Shown here piece by piece: positions 1,491 to 42,448 of a stretch of DNA of 64,000 nt; position 1 is the first letter of the stretch; each line of letters begins with the position of its first letter. The stretch comes from Patescibacteria group bacterium. GTDB taxonomy: Bacteria; Patescibacteriota; Patescibacteriia; JACRDY01. Location of the stretch: contig JBAZLA010000001.1 of NCBI GenBank assembly GCA_041650515.1, positions 146,710-210,709 on the forward strand. Reading direction: 5' to 3'. The notes under the pieces are model-generated. The model worked only from the letters and a program-made list of their open reading frames with translations. It had not been told where the DNA came from and ran no database searches. Made by a program: the position numbers and the translations under genes.

Positions 1491-1619
1491 TTATTAATAA
1501 AAATTAGTCTTAAATTTATCTTAGGCTATTCGGCCTTTTTTGGCAACCAATCTAAATGATTAAACAAAAAACACCCCGAGGAGTGATTTTATTCAGTACT
1601 ATATTTTTTATCGAGGTCA

Positions 1620-1745
1620 CTCAGGGCAGGCTTGCCACCCTACGGGTGGTCCCCCGTAGGGGGAAACCTGCGACCTCCGCGTCCCAAACGCGGCGCGCTA
1701 GCCCCGCCCAAAGGGCGGTCGCCCTCTGGGCGAAACTGTACGCCA
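1620..1745 (-). repeat. Degenerate tRNA-Pro-like copy with double-hairpin insertion in T-loop
   Basis: The reverse complement shares the tRNA-Pro anticodon arm (GCTAGCGCGCCGCGTTTGGGACGCGGAGGTCGCAGGTT). A 30-nt segment TCCCCCTACGGGGGACCACCCGTAGGGTGG then replaces the T-loop. The 5' part reads GCGTACAGTT[TCGCCCAGAGGGCGACCGCCCTTTGGGCGGG]GCTAGCGCG, with an insertion in the D-loop. Confidence 0.6.
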
Positions 1746-2031
1746 TACCATAGCTAGATACCACTCTACTCAGCTAATAATTTTCTATAATCAGCTTAAC
1801 TAATTTATTACCTACACCGGATTTTAAAAATTTTTCCCTTTGCCAAGCATCCTTTTGACAATAAAAACTCTCATAATAAACTAACTCAAATGGTCTATTC
1901 TGACTAGTCCAACTATTACTCCCCAAATTATGTTCCGCTAATCTTTTTCCCGGTAATTTCTATGTTACGCCAACATAAGATTTACCGTTCTTTAGACTTT
2001 TTAAAATATAAATAAAAAACATATATCTTTA

Positions 2032-2105
2032 TCGGGGTGACAGGGCTCGAACCTGCGACCTCCGCGTCCCAAACGCGGCGCGCTAGCCAACTGCGCTACA
2101 CCCCG
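2032..2105 (-). tRNA. tRNA-Pro (anticodon TGG)
   Basis: The reverse complement CGGGGTGTAGCGCAGTTGGCTAGCGCGCCGCGTTTGGGACGCGGAGGTCGCAGGTTCGAGCCCTGTCACCCCGA folds as a 74-nt cloverleaf. The anticodon loop is TTTGGGA. Confidence 0.85.
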
Positions 2106-2117
2106 GCGATAAAAATT

Positions 2118-2198
2118 GAAGGAACAATTCGTACGCGCTAGCCCCGCCCAAAGGGCGGTCGCCCTCTGGGCGAAACTGCGCTACACCCCGATAAAAAA
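2118..2198 (-). repeat. 5' tRNA-Pro fragment duplicate with 31-nt double-hairpin insertion in D-loop
   Basis: The reverse complement is CGGGGTGTAGCGCAGTT[TCGCCCAGAGGGCGACCGCCCTTTGGGCGGG]GCTAGCGCG followed by unrelated sequence. It is identical to the tRNA-Pro 5' end outside the insert. Confidence 0.6.
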
Positions 2199-2392
2199 AT
2201 AATGTTCAGGCAATAAACGCAGAAAACTCGATCCAGAGTCTCCCCCACGCAAATGCCGAGGGGCAGCCCTTCGCTTCGCTCAGGATGACAGACTGCCGAC
2301 CCGTTCGTCCCGATTGTCATCGGAACTCAGGGCAGGCTCCAGGATTTTCTATAAATTTATTCCTGCTAGTCCGGAGTTTATCCCTTTACAAA

Positions 2393-2464
2393 TGCCGAGG
2401 GGCAGGATTGAACTGCCGACGCAAGGATTTTCAGTCCTTCGCTCTACCACTGAGCTACCTCGGC
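2393..2464 (-). tRNA. tRNA-Phe (anticodon GAA)
   Basis: The reverse complement GCCGAGGTAGCTCAGTGGTAGAGCGAAGGACTGAAAATCCTTGCGTCGGCAGTTCAATCCTGCCCCTCGGCA is a 72-nt cloverleaf. The anticodon loop is CTGAAAA. Confidence 0.85.
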
Positions 2465-2533
2465 AAAAATTCTCGGCATTTGTAAAGGGACTCTACCACT
2501 GAGCTACCTCGGCAAAAATTCTCGGCATTTGTG
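2443..2533. repeat. Tandem direct repeat (~49 bp x2) duplicating the tRNA-Phe 5' end plus upstream flank
   Basis: The sequence ctctaccactgagctacctcggcaaaaattctcggcatttgt occurs twice in tandem. A 3'-end fragment aaatgccgaggggcag occurs at 2253 as well as at 2391. Confidence 0.7.
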
Positions 2534-2626
2534 TAAGGGAAACAATGTAGTTTTTAGTCCAAAATTCATCCTCAACGGATAAAAACTTCAACACTTCAGC
2601 TATCTTAACAACTATCTGGTACAAAG

Positions 2627-2700
2627 TGGGCGTACCTGGGCTCGAACCAGGGACCTCGTCATTATCAGTGACGCGCTCTGACCAGCTGAGCTATACGCCC
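2627..2700 (-). tRNA. tRNA-Ile (anticodon GAT)
   Basis: The reverse complement GGGCGTATAGCTCAGCTGGTCAGAGCGCGTCACTGATAATGACGAGGTCCCTGGTTCGAGCCCAGGTACGCCCA is a 74-nt cloverleaf. The anticodon loop is CTGATAA. Confidence 0.85.
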
Positions 2701-2936
2701 ACTCTACACCAGACCCAAATTGCTTCCATTGATTATACAAACAACACGAATTACAGTCTAATATAATTTATAAAAAAAATCAATACCATTAATTACTTAA
2801 AAACGCTCCATTAAGAAGCGCTTCTAATTTAACAACCAAAAAGTGATAGAAACCGCAGTATCCGAAATAACCACACTTTTTACTCAAGAGTAAAAAGTTC
2901 GACTAATTGGTGCATTTGCTCACCATATCTCCTTAG

Positions 2937-4586
<1,650 letters not shown>

Positions 4587-5157
4587 TTAAATACTGATAA
4601 GTTGTCCGTACACTAACAACACCAGTTGCTAATGTTTACCCCGTAGAGTCTACGGGTTTAACTCTCTCAGTAGAGTTATAAGAGAAAATAAAGTTGAATA
4701 GATAGGTTACTTCGCACTTACGATTTACTATCACTTTTCGATTGTCAATGTTCCTTTTCTCACCTCTTAATTTTTTATCAAATTAAGAGACGAAAAAACA
4801 GTGCGGGCCAAATCAACGACTTCCACTGGGGAATGTCTACTCAGCCATCACTGTTTTTCCGTCTACTTTTCCCCTGTCAGGGGAAAGTTTAGATGAATTG
4901 TAATAATGTTTTTATGGAACTTTTTATGCCTTGCCTCGCCGGTGCCCTAAAAGGGCATAGGCGGGTTATTTTTAAAGCCCTCTCATTATATACCTTTGCT
5001 AGACCCTGTCAAGGGTGAGACAACAAGCCAATAATGCACAAATTATACCCAGTCAATTTATAACCTAAATAGTAAAATAACCATTGTCCAAACCCTTGAC
5101 TAAATTGATTGTCCGTGTTACAGTTACTAATCCATTTCTCACACCAAGGAGGGCACT

Positions 5158-8999: not shown

Positions 9000-11273
9000 T
9001 TACTTGGCGTACTGCTGCCCTTCTTCCAGTTTAATCGACAGCATTTTGGAAACACTATCATCACCCATGGTCACGCCATAAAGCACATCGCCCTTGGCCA
9101 TGGTGGTTCGATTATGAGTCACAATAATAAATTGAGTTTTGTGCGCCAGGGTTTCAACAATATTAGACAATCGTTCTGAATTGGCTTCATCCAGCGCCGC
9201 ATCCACCTCATCAAGAACAACAAAGGGGGAGGGATTGCAAGCAATAATGGCGCAGATCAAAGCAATCGCCGTCATCGCTCGCTCGCCGCCTGACAAAGTG
9301 TTGAGACTAGAAATCCTTTTGCCTGGGGGACAAGCCTTAATCTCCACCCCGCCATATTCTAATTCCTTGCTACCGTCGCCGATTCTAGCTTTTCCGCCTC
9401 CGGCGGACCCGCCGTAGGCGGGCTTGTTGACCACCTTACCACTCTCATCCAGCTCTTCTTCATCATCTTCGATCTCGATCATAATTTTTTCCAAACTCGC
9501 CTTACCGCCACCAAACAACACTTGAAAATATTCACCAAACTTAGCATTAATATTTTGAAAAGTCTCATCAAAACGCTTATGGATCTCTTCATCCAACTCG
9601 CGAATAATCTGTCGCAGACTTTCGATGGCCTGAGTTAAATCTTGATACTGCTCATTTAAAAATTCATAACGAACCTTAATCTCTTCATATTCTCTAATCG
9701 ACTCATCATCTAGACCACCGATTAACTCGAGCTGCCGTTTGAGCTTTTGAATTTTGTCATAAGCCTCAGCCATCCCGCTCTCGCCGATCGCCGGCTGCTG
9801 ACTGCTGGTTGGCAATTCAACATCTCCCATCTCTCGTTTAATCTCCCGTTCCAAATCTTCTTTTCGTGTCTCTAGTTTGGCTAGCTCAATCTTGATATCA
9901 TTAACCTTGATTGACAGATTATTAAGCTCGCTTTGCTGACCAGCAAACTGACGTTGCAGATCAAAAAATTCACCTTTTTTCTCTTGCTGTGTTAGGTTAA
10001 AATCAGCAATCGCCCGTTGGCTAGTCACTAATTCTTTAGCCACCAAACCCAAAGCCTCTTGGGTTATTTTTAGTTCCGCTTCTAATTCTTGATCAATTTT
10101 GATCTCCTCATCGGCTGGTTTCCTCACCTTACCCAACAAATCCTTAAGCCGGCCCTTGACATGATGAATTTGGTCTTTGACCTGGCCTAAGTGAACCAAT
10201 TCTTTAATCTGATCAACGTGGCTGATCAACGCTTCGTGGAGACTAATCAACTCTTCAATATACTGAGCCATCTCTTCAGCACCCAGGGGAATAAAATCCT
10301 GCTGGGCCTGCTCTTTGGCTAATTGAATTTTACTCTGCAAGATGAGCTGCCGTGACTGGAGCTGATTTTTCTTATCCAAAATCTGATTAAACTGCTGCTG
10401 TAATTTTTCAAATGCTTCCTGACCCGAATCTTCCTGCTCTAGTTGATTAAGCTTTTGTTGGATTGATCCCAAATTCTCGTGCTTAGCCAGTCGACCATCT
10501 TCAATAGCTTTAAACTCGCTCTGATATTTTTGCCAGTGTTCATTAATATCAAAATACAACTGACCATAATACTGTTGCTGGATACCGCGCAATTCCGTCT
10601 CAATCTCGCCACGCTGTTCAAGCCGCTTGACCAATCGACCGAGTGAACGATAACGCGGCCCTAATTCCTGCAAAGTCACGTCGGTTGTTTTAAGATTTTC
10701 CTCAGTCCGCAAAAGTTTATTCAGGGTCTGGTCCCGCTTGATTTGGTATTCTTTAACCCCAGCTGCCTCATCAAAAAACTCTTTACGCTCAGACTGGGTA
10801 GCCACCAAAAAATGATCCACCATGCCTTGGCCAATAACACTATAAGTCCGCTGACCAAAATTGGCCTTGGCCAATAGAATCAAAATATCCCCCAAGCGCA
10901 CCCGACTCTTATTCAATAAATATTCGCTTTCGCCGTCACGATAAAGCCGGCGGGTAATTACCAACTCAGAATAATCAATCTGAGCTTGGCCATCCTCATT
11001 ATTTAAATACAAAGAAACTTCGGCCATACCCACCCGGGATTTTTTATCCGAACCAAAAAAGATGACGTCTTCGCTCTTTTTACCCCGCAACGTCTTCATC
11101 GACTGTTCACCTAACACCCAGCGGATAGCGTCAGCAATGTTGGATTTACCGCTGCCATTAGGACCAACTACCGCTGTGATGCCTTTACCTTTACCATTAG
11201 CCGAGGGGAATTCTAAAATCGTCCGATTGGCGAACGACTTAAACCCTTGGATCTCGAGTTTTTGTAAATACAT
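9000..11273 (-). CDS. smc: SMC-family chromosome segregation ATPase, unusually short (757 aa)
   Basis: The N-terminal head carries GPNGSGKSN, the Walker A motif. A coiled-coil middle follows. The C-terminal head carries LSGGERAMTAIALICAI...VLDEVDAALD...QFIIVTHNRTTMAKGDVLYGVTM. Confidence 0.7.
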   Translation of the reverse strand: MYLQKLEIQGFKSFANRTILEFPSANGKGKGITAVVGPNGSGKSNIADAIRWVLGEQSMKTLRGKKSEDVIFFGSDKKSRVGMAEVSLYLNNEDGQAQIDYSELVITRRLYRDGESEYLLNKSRVRLGDILILLAKANFGQRTYSVIGQGMVDHFLVATQSERKEFFDEAAGVKEYQIKRDQTLNKLLRTEENLKTTDVTLQELGPRYRSLGRLVKRLEQRGEIETELRGIQQQYYGQLYFDINEHWQKYQSEFKAIEDGRLAKHENLGSIQQKLNQLEQEDSGQEAFEKLQQQFNQILDKKNQLQSRQLILQSKIQLAKEQAQQDFIPLGAEEMAQYIEELISLHEALISHVDQIKELVHLGQVKDQIHHVKGRLKDLLGKVRKPADEEIKIDQELEAELKITQEALGLVAKELVTSQRAIADFNLTQQEKKGEFFDLQRQFAGQQSELNNLSIKVNDIKIELAKLETRKEDLEREIKREMGDVELPTSSQQPAIGESGMAEAYDKIQKLKRQLELIGGLDDESIREYEEIKVRYEFLNEQYQDLTQAIESLRQIIRELDEEIHKRFDETFQNINAKFGEYFQVLFGGGKASLEKIMIEIEDDEEELDESGKVVNKPAYGGSAGGGKARIGDGSKELEYGGVEIKACPPGKRISSLNTLSGGERAMTAIALICAIIACNPSPFVVLDEVDAALDEANSERLSNIVETLAHKTQFIIVTHNRTTMAKGDVLYGVTMGDDSVSKMLSIKLEEGQQYAK

Positions 11274-40984: not shown

Positions 40985-41264
40985 TCGCCCTCAGTAGGAA
41001 TCCCACCCCTACGGGTGGTGGCCCGTTAGGGCCAGAACCTACAAGAGAACAGTTGCTCTACTACTGGTTTCCAATATTCGCCCTCAGTAGGAATCCCACC
41101 CCTACGGGTGGTGGCCCGTTAGGGCCAGAACCTACAAGAGAACAGTTGCTCTACTACTGGTTTCCAATATTCGCCCTCAGTAGGAATCCCACCCCTACGG
41201 GTGGTGGCCCGTTAGGGCCAGAACCTACAAGAGAACAGTTGCTCTACTACTGGTTTCCAATATT
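40985..41264. repeat. Three tandem 93-bp units, each ending (tRNA orientation) in the 17-nt tRNA-Arg 3' terminus and containing a tRNA-3'-half-like segment with 32-nt double-hairpin insertion
   Basis: The units begin at 40985, 41079 and 41172 and are essentially identical. The next copy at 41265 is the genuine tRNA-Arg. The ORF-track 113-aa frame 40969..41310 is a repeat artefact. Confidence 0.8.
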
Positions 41265-41336
41265 CGCCCTCAGTAGGAATCGAACCTACATATCCAGCTT
41301 AGAAGGCTAGTGTTCTATCCATTGAACTATGAGGGC
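41265..41336 (-). tRNA. tRNA-Arg (anticodon TCT)
   Basis: The reverse complement GCCCTCATAGTTCAATGGATAGAACACTAGCCTTCTAAGCTGGATATGTAGGTTCGATTCCTACTGAGGGCG is a 72-nt cloverleaf. Confidence 0.8.
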
Positions 41337-41389: not shown

Positions 41390-42448
41390 CTAACTCTTTT
41401 TCCGCTGGCGACCATGAAAAGCCTTATAGACCTCACGCAAATGTTTATCGGTAATATGAGTATAAATTTGGGTTGTGGTGATGGAAGCATGGCCCAATAA
41501 CGACTGCACCGAACGGATATCAGCACCAGAAGTTAATAAATCAGTGGCAAAACTATGACGCAAAGTGTGCGGCGTAATCTTTTTGGTGATGCCGGCCAGC
41601 CGAGCGTACTTTTTGATCAATCGTTGCACTGACCGCGGCGTCAAAAAACTCACCTCCTCTACTCCTCTGGACTCTGGACTCGGGACTCGGGACTTATTTG
41701 CCCGATCATGACTAACAAAAATATAATCCGAACCATCCCGTCGAGTCGCCAAATAGCGTCGTAACCAAAATTTAGCTTGGTTAGAAATAAAAACCACTCG
41801 CGGTTTGTCACCCTTGCCCCGGACGGTAAATTCTTCTTTAGCTAGATTAATCTGATCTTTTTGAAGATGGACTAATTCTGAGACGCGCAGACCAGTCGAA
41901 AACAACATTTCTAATATGGCTTTGTCGCGGAGCGGAATAATATTGGCAATATAATCATTACCATCTTGATCAATCTCAACTTTATTAATCTGTAACGGCG
42001 CAGCTAAAAACCGTTCTAGATCGCTGCCTTCTAAATATTCAATGTGCCGTTCGGACTGCCTCGCTAGCTCAATTTTTTCTGGTGCCAAAGACCTAATATC
42101 GTTTTTGGCTAAATATTTAAGAAAAGAGCGCAAAGCAATCAGATGATAGTTCTGAGTGCTACTCTTGAGATTTTTACCATGATCATCAGTAGCTCGATTG
42201 AGCCAAAGCCGAAACTGACGGATCAGGCTCGAGTCGACATCTTCAATCTTAAAACTTTTGTTTTTACTTTTAGCCCAATTAAAAAACCGCTGTAAATAAA
42301 AATCATAATTACGAATCGTAGCTTGCGCTCGACCACGTTCGATCTCGAGATATTCGAGAAAATTAGTGACTAGGGGATTAGCTGACATAATTAAGAAAGC
42401 AAAAAAGCATACGGCCTCTCCGCCGAATCGGCGGATTGGCCTAAGCAA
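41390..42448 (-). CDS. Tyrosine site-specific recombinase/integrase (XerC/D-like)
   Basis: 352 aa with an N-terminal SAM-like domain. The catalytic C-terminus reads HTLRHSFATDLLTSGADIRSVQSLLGHASITTTQIYTHI (R...HxxR...Y). It is adjacent to tRNA-Arg. Confidence 0.8.
   Translation of the reverse strand: MLRPIRRFGGEAVCFFAFLIMSANPLVTNFLEYLEIERGRAQATIRNYDFYLQRFFNWAKSKNKSFKIEDVDSSLIRQFRLWLNRATDDHGKNLKSSTQNYHLIALRSFLKYLAKNDIRSLAPEKIELARQSERHIEYLEGSDLERFLAAPLQINKVEIDQDGNDYIANIIPLRDKAILEMLFSTGLRVSELVHLQKDQINLAKEEFTVRGKGDKPRVVFISNQAKFWLRRYLATRRDGSDYIFVSHDRANKSRVPSPESRGVEEVSFLTPRSVQRLIKKYARLAGITKKITPHTLRHSFATDLLTSGADIRSVQSLLGHASITTTQIYTHITDKHLREVYKAFHGRQRKKS

Follow-up and report, generated by a model that had tools for sequence, protein, structure and literature searches.

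In a 64,000-nucleotide stretch of a Patescibacteria group bacterium (contig JBAZLA010000001.1 of assembly GCA_041650515.1, positions 146,710 to 210,709; hereafter the window), an intact tRNA-Phe gene is flanked on either side by a partial copy of itself. Judged by their sequence, the two repeats belong to one dead tRNA-Phe copy, of which they form the 5' and 3' halves and which encloses the live gene; they are assigned to a single disrupted copy because the 5' fragment matches on the side of the gene opposite to the 3' fragment. On balance, these repeats are probably the displaced halves of a resident gene around an inserted tRNA-Phe unit, and this locus and others like it the scars of cassettes that invade tRNA genes and carry a replacement with them. 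The reading draws on the anatomy of the locus, its recurrence in related genomes, the polarity of the fragments, and the linkage of dead tRNA copies to small GIY-YIG nuclease genes and a conserved double hairpin.

Architecture of the tRNA-Phe locus

The minus strand carries every RNA gene of the region, namely the 16S rRNA (4590-2937), tRNA-Ile, tRNA-Phe (2465-2392) and tRNA-Pro, as identified with ARAGORN and Rfam, and the locus is therefore to be read on that strand. Its parts, in window coordinates, are as follows.

2515-2543, minus strand: outer leader tcccttacacaaatgccgag and spacer, pairing with the outer trailer at 2238-2260 (inverted repeat; minimum free energy, MFE, fold)
2491-2514, minus strand: outer 5' fragment, an exact copy of tRNA-Phe nt 1-24 ending in ..GGTAGAG (direct repeat; Tandem Repeats Finder, TRF, period 49)
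2466-2490, minus strand: inner leader, consisting of a 6-7 nt A/T spacer (aattttt) and the helix strand tccctttacaaatgccgag with a pseudo-acceptor 5' strand GCCGAG (inverted repeat of 19 nt, 100% complementary; 20-bp helix; covariation)
2392-2465, minus strand: intact inner tRNA-Phe(GAA), CCA not encoded (ARAGORN; Rfam tRNA, 70.3 bits)
2381-2399, minus strand: partner of the inner helix, the final 8 nt of tRNA-Phe and the trailer tttgtaaaggga (inverted repeat; fold)
2368-2384, minus strand: conserved 3'-flank motif GGGATAAACTCCGGACT, the same 17-mer being found after the tRNA-Phe trailer in 10 other loci
2241-2349, minus strand: outer 3' half of the dead tRNA-Phe copy, GAAAATCCT / GTCGGCAGT / CTGCCCCTCGGCA, with the trailer tttgcgtggggga (direct repeats)
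2301-2340, minus strand: insert 1, in place of the variable region, holding AGCCTGCCCTGAG, which is also present in the dead tRNA-Pro copy
2267-2291, minus strand: insert 2, in place of the T loop, holding GAGCGAAGCGAAG, which is also present in an insertion of the 16S gene

Read 5' to 3', the outer leader is followed by the copy of tRNA-Phe nt 1-24, the inner leader, the intact tRNA-Phe, the trailer tttgtaaaggga and the motif taaaCTCCGGACT, after which come 18 nt with no assignment, GAAAATCCT, a 40-nt insert, GTCGGCAGT, a 25-nt insert, CTGCCCCTCGGCA and the outer trailer tttgcgtggggga. The whole stretch folds into nested helices with a z of -8.0 (MFE fold). The pentamer GGACT within GGGATAAACTCCGGACT could correspond, from its sequence, to anticodon-arm nt 29-33 of the displaced copy.

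Both repeats are real and non-random. The upstream repeat is exact over 42 nt (2442-2483 and 2491-2532), and TRF extends it to 2442-2540 with a period of 49, 2.0 copies and 96% matches. A preliminary description of this DNA had recognised the duplication and its total length but placed it one base off, at 2443-2484 and 2492-2533, and divided it into 20 nt of tRNA and 22 nt of upstream sequence, where the split is really 24 nt of tRNA and 18 nt of leader. The upstream part is no anonymous flank but a conserved leader, its pairing partner being the 3' end of the tRNA together with the trailer. The downstream repeat CAAATGCCGAGGGGCAG is exact over 17 nt (2250-2266 and 2389-2405; spacing 139, with 122 nt between the copies) and has 2 matches where 0.00 are expected from 100 shuffles. 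This repeat, described earlier as a copy of the tRNA 3' terminus, is only the end of a longer homologous stretch. Three blocks of that stretch are exact and colinear with the tRNA on the minus strand, GAAAATCCT (2349-2341), GTCGGCAGT (2300-2292) and CTGCCCCTCGGCATTTG (2266-2250), and they are parted by the two hairpin-rich inserts of 40 and 25 nt. The resulting degenerate 3' half measures 109 nt and is devoid of the variable region and the T loop, so that no T arm is possible. Sequences held by the inserts recur elsewhere in the window, AGCCTGCCCTGAG having 2 matches (1620-1632 and 2326-2338) against 0.04 expected and GAGCGAAGCGAAG 2 matches (2269-2281 and 3307-3319) against 0.09 expected.

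Two side observations concern the surroundings of this locus. At 2586-2606 (minus strand) the sequence aagatagctgaagtgttgaag is weakly similar to tRNA-Phe nt 5-24 (about 14 of 20 positions by eye) and may represent a third, older layer of 5' fragment. The 16S gene (2937-4590, minus strand) contains an insertion of about 175 nt at 3296-3470, composed of an A/T-rich inverted repeat and small GC hairpins, which has the 13-mer GAGCGAAGCGAAG in common with the insert of the dead tRNA-Phe copy.

Recurrence of the layout in related genomes

Related loci were collected by a scan with a tRNA-Phe 40-mer, one genome per species, which gave 119 loci with 360 tRNAs (L-numbers denote these loci); the record titles that name a lineage are nearly all of Patescibacteria, with one labelled Pirellulales. 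Self-fragments, defined as exact matches of at least 11 nt in the flanks of a tRNA and outside annotated tRNAs, flank 72 of the 360 tRNAs (20%), against an estimated chance expectation of about 7. Their polarity is pronounced, since blocks lying upstream are 5' parts of the tRNA in 46 of 48 cases and blocks lying downstream are 3' parts in 56 of 65 (Fisher p = 5e-20).

The tRNA-Phe layout of the window recurs in at least ten other Patescibacteria (L102, L103, L077, L125, L127, L130, L133, L137, L139 and L146), and the same ten loci repeat the junctions ..GGTAGAG/tccc-leader and trailer-ggga/taaaCTCCGGACT(GAAAAT..), where the slash marks the point of junction; L102 and L142 are on the same 229,512-bp contig and hence not independent. 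The inner gene is placed further 3' within the outer copy in L058 and L041. The outer acceptor stem of L077 is GCCAGGG/CCCTGGC against an inner GCCGAGG/CCTCGGC, and that of L137 is GCCGGGT/ACCCGGC against an inner GCCGGCT/AGCCGGC. In both loci, the acceptor stem of the outer halves is unlike that of the inner gene, yet self-complementary. Similarly, the outer 5' fragment and the inner gene are different alleles in L127 and L146. Allele differences of this kind, as read from the sequences of the four loci, would be hard to obtain from two independent local duplications; they fit either the placement of an intact gene of another allele inside the resident gene or the recombination of the whole nested unit through its outer arms. 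The same features are seen in contigs whose record names suggest long-read or complete-chromosome assembly (L059; L018 and L107), the technology being unchecked.

The 663-aa protein encoded beside the locus has no close homologue, its nearest relative being about 52% identical, and an exact look-up of this protein returned the source contig and a Logan contig only. Two syntenic loci (L159 and L161) keep the order 16S-Ile-(Val)-Phe-Pro-protein. In L161, tRNA-Ile is nested, with hairpins in the D and T loops, and tRNA-Phe is clean; in L159, tRNA-Ile has a 3' fragment and tRNA-Phe has a 5' fragment only, which bears a hairpin. Scars are therefore located at different tRNAs in syntenic relatives, which points to a recurrent, lineage-specific process and not to a conserved structure.

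Some further features of the relatives are recorded here in their own right. A TAGAGTC or TAGGATC box is located 20-30 nt upstream of tRNA-Phe in L010, L032, L038, L146, L011 and L119, at a position corresponding to the fragment junction GGTAGAG/TCCC of the window. As a side hypothesis based on this resemblance, a D-arm fragment that was retained may have a second use, as an extended -10 promoter element (TGGTAGAGT); a simple promoter scan made no call on the GGTAGAG/T junction box. The tRNA-Phe region of L104 (minus orientation, about 250 nt after GCGAAGGACTG) holds a second copy that is broken in the anticodon loop by about 250 nt and resumes at GAAAATCCTTGCG; the interruption may be a group I-type intron, in a record that is partly N-masked. 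At 3990-4170 (minus strand) of L018, five tandem 32-nt repeats (atggaaaaGCCGAGGtttaCTCGGCgtaatgt) lie between a GIY-YIG open reading frame (ORF) and tRNA-Phe, each repeat being a mini-hairpin of the tRNA-Phe acceptor strands. A scan of viral contigs with the tRNA-Phe pattern yielded two unrelated tRNA-Phe genes at contig ends.

Linkage of dead tRNA copies to GIY-YIG genes and double hairpins

The partial-duplication scars that the preliminary description had reported for tRNA-Phe, tRNA-Pro and tRNA-Arg alike are all present. The tRNA-Pro locus comprises the following parts.

2134-2190, minus strand: 5' fragment of tRNA-Pro, nt 1-27, whose D loop contains a 30-nt double hairpin (2144-2173) (direct repeats)
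2032-2105, minus strand: intact tRNA-Pro(TGG) (ARAGORN; Rfam)
1774-2022, minus strand: GIY-YIG nuclease pseudogene of 82 codons, with one in-frame TAG at 1960-1962 (jackhmmer; Pfam PF01541, E 1.3e-15)
1611-1744, minus strand: dead tRNA-Pro copy spanning D loop to 3' end, one double hairpin occupying the D loop (1704-1733) and another the T loop (1635-1664) (direct repeats)

This locus displays the layout of the tRNA-Phe locus with more of its parts kept, 5' fragment, intact gene, GIY-YIG pseudogene and dead copy, the pseudogene being positioned between the intact tRNA-Pro and its dead 3' copy. The dead copy is marked by direct repeats of 45 nt (100%) and 39 nt (100%), and its D-loop segment is 100% identical over 45 nt to that of the 5' fragment. 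Intact homologues of the GIY-YIG sequence exist at 57-77% identity.

Small GIY-YIG ORFs abut tRNAs of the same strand in 11 of 11 cases in 0.94 Mb. Wherever a fragment lies 250-360 nt from its tRNA, the tRNA-Pro of the window included, the gap is occupied by such an ORF, and an ORF between the intact gene and the displaced fragment is also present in L113, L080, L100, L116, L017, L021, L162, L165 and L167. Two arrangements are found. In arrangement A, the 5' fragment with its D-loop hairpin is followed by the ORF and the intact tRNA; in arrangement B, the intact tRNA is followed by the ORF and a copy starting GCAGTT-double hairpin-GGCTAG. In L113 and L080 the ORF continues across the hairpin as far as the D-loop TAG. 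An independent sample, made up of the closest database homologues of the window ORF (57-77% identity, four gene families), shows a tRNA piece with a D-loop double hairpin beside the ORF in three of the four families. The piece follows the stop codon by 10-15 nt in L162-164 and L167-169 and is directly upstream of the start in L165; in the fourth family the ORF is followed by an intact-looking tRNA-Pro start.

Perfect double hairpins with the consensus TCCGCCaaagGGCGGA-CCCGCCtctgGGCGGG number 18 in 1.02 Mb, 7 of them in the window. Sixteen of the 18 are positioned at AGTT/../GGCTAG in a D loop or at GGTTC/../GATTC in a T loop, in fixed orientation and with conserved sequence. Single GC hairpins are also abundant in the window, with 59 found against about 9 expected in shuffles. 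A comparison of hairpin density near tRNAs (2.4 against 1.2 per kb) was set aside, being superseded by the count of perfect double hairpins. The GIY-YIG (pseudo)gene of the tRNA-Pro locus and the conserved 30-nt double hairpins, at D-loop position 17/18 and in the T loop, are the reason for reading these loci as scars of selfish cassettes.

Members or relatives of these structures were observed in other settings. An in-frame 30-nt double hairpin of the same family (TCCGCCtccGGCGGA-CCCGCCgtaGGCGGG) is located at 9393-9422 (written here as plus-strand sequence) in the SMC gene (9000-11273, minus strand), where it encodes PAYGGSAGGG. A structured module of about 90 nt, termed module X (GGAGCGATG..CCGCGAG..GGTGGC..CGGAAG..CGAGGCC), is found inside a T-loop-like hairpin of tRNA-Ala and tRNA-Pro 3' units in L055 (4849-5549), L018 (3575-3721), L047 (2824-2970), L079, L082, L091 and L107. 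It has 36 predicted pairs, 22 with compensatory changes. Within one genome, the Ala and Pro units contain nearly identical versions of it, and in L055 it is in tandem. An RNA-guided reading of module X with its adjacent tRNA fragment, similar to IS200/IS605-omega systems, was set aside because the rebuilt intact tRNA would recreate the target. Neither the fragments nor the double hairpins nor module X matched an Rfam family, at the gathering threshold or at E<=5.

Proposed origin of the nested copies

In the favoured explanation, a self-contained unit consisting of leader, tRNA, trailer and the flank motif GGGATAAACTCCGGACT would have been placed inside a resident tRNA-Phe gene, landing between nt 23/24 and the anticodon loop. 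One intact gene would have been kept while the ends of the resident were pushed outwards. Freed from selection, the displaced halves would then have gained small GC-rich hairpin inserts, with loss of the T loop from the 3' half, and the 5' half would later have been re-homogenised or re-duplicated as the 49-nt tandem repeat. This order of events is our inference. The same process would have acted at many Patescibacteria tRNA genes, the cassettes sparing their host by supplying a replacement tRNA or segment and not by splicing. The insertion itself was presumably driven by a nuclease, through homing by double-strand-break repair, and the ORF-less Phe cassette would, by analogy, be an element of the same kind as that at tRNA-Pro.

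A broader proposal is offered tentatively, as possible and short of probable. An undescribed selfish family would invade tRNA genes at the D loop (17/18), between nt 23/24 and the anticodon loop, and at the T loop (56/57), bringing a replacement tRNA or segment, and would include autonomous and trans-mobilised members. The former would encode an 80-95-aa GIY-YIG nuclease and end in the conserved 30-nt double hairpin. The latter, ORF-less derivatives mobilised in trans, would include the nested tRNA-Phe cassette, the 93-nt units beside tRNA-Arg described below and module X units of about 165 nt.

Several observations weigh against insertion of a cassette. Inner and outer Phe copies of the window are identical at 77 of 77 aligned nt, and a purely local duplication therefore explains the Phe locus equally well. 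The 5'-upstream, 3'-downstream polarity is also expected of tandem duplications that span a gene boundary under purifying selection. No nuclease ORF is present within the Phe locus of the window, and the GIY-YIG sequence linked to tRNA-Pro has an in-frame stop. No filled and empty pair of sites was found among closely related genomes, the flanking protein of the nearest relative being only about 52% identical. Any target site within the tRNA would be retained by the intact tRNA, whose escape from a homing nuclease is unexplained. Finally, the conservation of GGGATAAACTCCGGACT and the covarying helices described below hint that parts of the locus may be functional RNA and not debris.

The alternative that survives best, although it is judged unlikely, involves local events only. 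Slippage or unequal crossing-over across the 5' or 3' gene boundary would duplicate part of the gene, selection would keep one copy, and the extra ones would decay and gather hairpins. Boundary-spanning duplications of this kind would yield the polarity rule automatically, and they agree with the 96-100% identity of the 49-nt tandem repeat, with every aligned base being common to the outer and inner window copies, and with the perfect 93-nt tandem at tRNA-Arg. Left unexplained are the different and mutually complementary outer acceptor stems of L077 and L137, the identical junctions in at least ten species and the strictness with which GIY-YIG ORFs and the conserved double hairpin accompany dead copies.

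Leader-trailer helices

Between the inner leader and the final 8 nt of tRNA-Phe plus the trailer, complementarity is 100% over 19 nt. The outer leader and outer trailer form a 23-nt inverted repeat with 83% complementarity and three mismatches, two of which become G-U when read in the tRNA sense. A tRNA-Phe helix of 16-25 bp is present in 17 loci, where shuffled sequences reach maxima of about 10. In this helix, the tRNA 3' end and trailer are paired to a pseudo-5' strand located in the leader, after which comes an A/T spacer of 3-11 nt. RNAalifold analysis of 13 species gives 18 pairs for this helix, 13 of them with compensatory changes, and the upstream sequence within the tandem repeat is therefore a functional leader. 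Most simply, the helix would be a processing stem. At tRNA-Ile, tRNA-Pro and some tRNA-Gly genes, the acceptor stem is extended without a break by 13-22 bp. The tRNA-Ile of the window displays a leader-trailer extension of 13-14 bp with three sense-orientation G-U pairs (2615-2634 / 2694-2713, minus strand), and similar extensions are found at tRNA-Ile, tRNA-Pro and tRNA-Gly of other genomes.

These helices bring in a second alternative, which is considered improbable, that the outer pieces are themselves functional RNA, either as a split or multi-intron tRNA-Phe from which the inserts and the inner tRNA are removed or as a processing scaffold of the 16S-tRNA operon. The covariation over 18 pairs (13 compensatory), the pairing still possible between outer leader and trailer with G-U in the sense orientation, the conserved 17-nt flank motif, the compensated outer acceptor halves of L077 and L137, and module X, with 22 compensated pairs at the T-loop position, all agree with such a function. 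However, cutting the inserts out of the outer Phe copy restores no canonical cloverleaf, the variable region and T loop being absent. With the tRNA covariance model at E<=5 no match was obtained outside the three intact genes, the outer Phe and dead Pro copies remaining undetected. The outer copies are not kept at orthologous tRNAs of syntenic relatives and the inner gene alone is a complete tRNA; moreover, bacteria are not known to have a splicing endonuclease, which counts against a split gene. Threading of the outer pieces onto the tRNA with cheap long gaps over-fitted scraps of 3 nt and was used neither for nor against the intron model.

The tRNA-Arg array and the integrase interpretation

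The third scarred tRNA gene of the window, tRNA-Arg (41265-41336), is located 38 kb away and is followed by a tandem array.

40985-41281, minus strand: 3.2 tandem 93-nt units after tRNA-Arg (TRF, 100% matches)

Each unit is built from a 36-nt spacer, a T arm whose loop contains a double hairpin, and the 3' strand of the tRNA-Arg acceptor stem, and the copy number of the array is uncertain, the contig being a k141 short-read assembly. The earlier statement that every tRNA downstream of the 16S gene is scarred is too wide: it applies to tRNA-Pro and tRNA-Arg, but it does not extend to tRNA-Ile (2626-2700) or tRNA-His, where no self-fragment of at least 11 nt was found.

The 3' repeat of tRNA-Phe had been called att-like. 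As a classical integrase scar, it would be what is left of an integrative element that used site-specific recombination to enter the tRNA-Phe 3' end and has since been lost by deletion. The 17-nt copy is downstream of the gene, as at attR, and a tyrosine recombinase gene (41390-42448), the sole one in the window, is adjacent to tRNA-Arg and its array. This recombinase, however, scores as a housekeeping enzyme of the XerD/XerC type, adjoins tRNA-Arg on its 5' side and is 39 kb from tRNA-Phe; an exact look-up of the protein gave no record, and no recombinase is present near 1500-3000 of the window. The repeats are 139 nt apart with no evident element DNA between them, the 3' copy reaches the anticodon loop, with inserts, and is paired with a 5' fragment on the opposite side of the gene. 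Elsewhere, scars are tied to GIY-YIG genes; integrases were not surveyed systematically, and the gene table of L162 lists an integrase gene about 130 nt from a tRNA-Pro. The att interpretation is therefore regarded as very improbable for the Phe locus. What a replacement-carrying cassette may share with it is a similar logic, in which the DNA that enters a tRNA gene also supplies the sequence to replace that tRNA.

An assembly artefact is scarcely credible. In its favour, the window is one contig (k141_1064255) of a short-read metagenome assembled with MEGAHIT at k141 (ENA ERZ27247363), the sole independent contig (Logan SRR8542065), identical over an overlap of 1656 nt, begins within a hairpin repeat at 1656, and the copy number of perfect tandems longer than k is untrustworthy. 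Against it, k exceeds the length of the Phe repeats, whose edges differ, unique inserts are present in the outer 3' half, and the same architecture appears in many assemblies from other assemblers, some with names suggesting long reads (technology unchecked). The repeats next to tRNAs do break short-read assemblies, the Logan contigs stopping there, and dead copies can lead to a wrong count of tRNAs.

Comparison with known systems

The Phe locus cannot be claimed for any known family, since no integrase is near it, removal of the inserts yields no cloverleaf and an endonuclease sequence is found only next door. In the literature searched, neither tRNA copies that are nested or bear hairpins nor GIY-YIG genes linked to tRNAs were described for Patescibacteria.

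Leader-trailer processing stems of rRNA operons are substrates of RNase III. The helices described here resemble them in being formed, over 13-22 bp, from the flanks of stable RNAs and in covarying between species, at tRNA-Ile, tRNA-Pro and tRNA-Phe. In contrast to the stems of rRNA operons, they flank single tRNAs, with a putative role in processing, and the Phe helix sequesters the acceptor 3' strand with a pseudo-5' strand, leaving a 3-11 nt A/T spacer. The covarying helices suggest an rRNA-like release of tRNAs in these organisms.

Disrupted tRNA genes of archaea and algae include multiple-intron, split and permuted forms (PMC4390854, PMC3978253, PMC3728597). They share with the present loci breaks at D-, anticodon-, variable- and T-loop positions and the pairing of leader and trailer. 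Here, in contrast, an intact gene lies inside the broken one, excision restores nothing and the host is a bacterium.

Among small palindromic mobile elements are the double-hairpin elements of Allomyces mitochondrial DNA, as cited in the papers found, the Rickettsia palindromic elements and the GC clusters of yeast mitochondria (PMC4478555). Similarly, the present hairpins are short GC-rich pairs of a dispersed family, found in variable regions of rRNA, in frame in SMC and in non-essential RNA copies. They differ in measuring only 30 nt, in occurring almost exclusively, and in fixed orientation, within D and T loops of dead tRNA copies and in their tight linkage to GIY-YIG genes; their mobility is putative. 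Together with the small GIY-YIG proteins, the 30-nt double hairpin is a candidate for a nuclease system that would recognise a sequence or a structure.

Duplication of host-gene fragments beside homing-endonuclease genes is represented by cases in the literature on fungal mitochondria. A GIY-YIG ORF with a foreign atp6 C-terminus in the mitochondrial DNA of Allomyces macrogynus was reportedly described by Paquin et al. in 1994, and the SegB endonuclease of phage T4 is said to reside in a tRNA gene cluster, according to Brok-Volchanskaya et al. in 2008. Like such free-standing cassettes, some of the loci analysed here, that of tRNA-Pro among them, combine a small GIY-YIG ORF beside a gene, one intact copy of that gene and a displaced partial copy on the far side, and the arrangement varies among distant relatives. 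Unlike them, the present loci have bacterial chromosomal tRNA genes as targets, supply a whole tRNA or its 5' or 3' part and contain a dead copy whose D or T loop bears a conserved double hairpin. Many copies are ORF-less, that of the Phe locus being one of them; the role of the nuclease in homing is putative.

Tyrosine integrases that target tRNA and tmRNA genes, and leave partial tRNA duplications at attL and attR, were reportedly described by Williams in 2002. The likeness consists in element-borne sequence that restores the tRNA gene, in a partial copy left as a direct repeat and in the possibility of tandem accretion. The present loci differ in that no integrase is near tRNA-Phe, in inserts of 50-400 nt and not of kilobases, in fragments on both sides of the gene and in the positions of their junctions, which are not limited to the T loop but include the D loop, nt 23/24 and the anticodon loop. 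If the broader proposal of a selfish family is true, about a fifth of the tRNA genes in these genomes would be layered relics of repeated invasions, and the tRNA genes of the streamlined candidate phyla radiation (CPR) genomes would be a major arena for selfish DNA. Replacing the gene that is broken would then constitute a third route into an essential gene, besides self-splicing introns and integrase elements that rebuild its 3' end.

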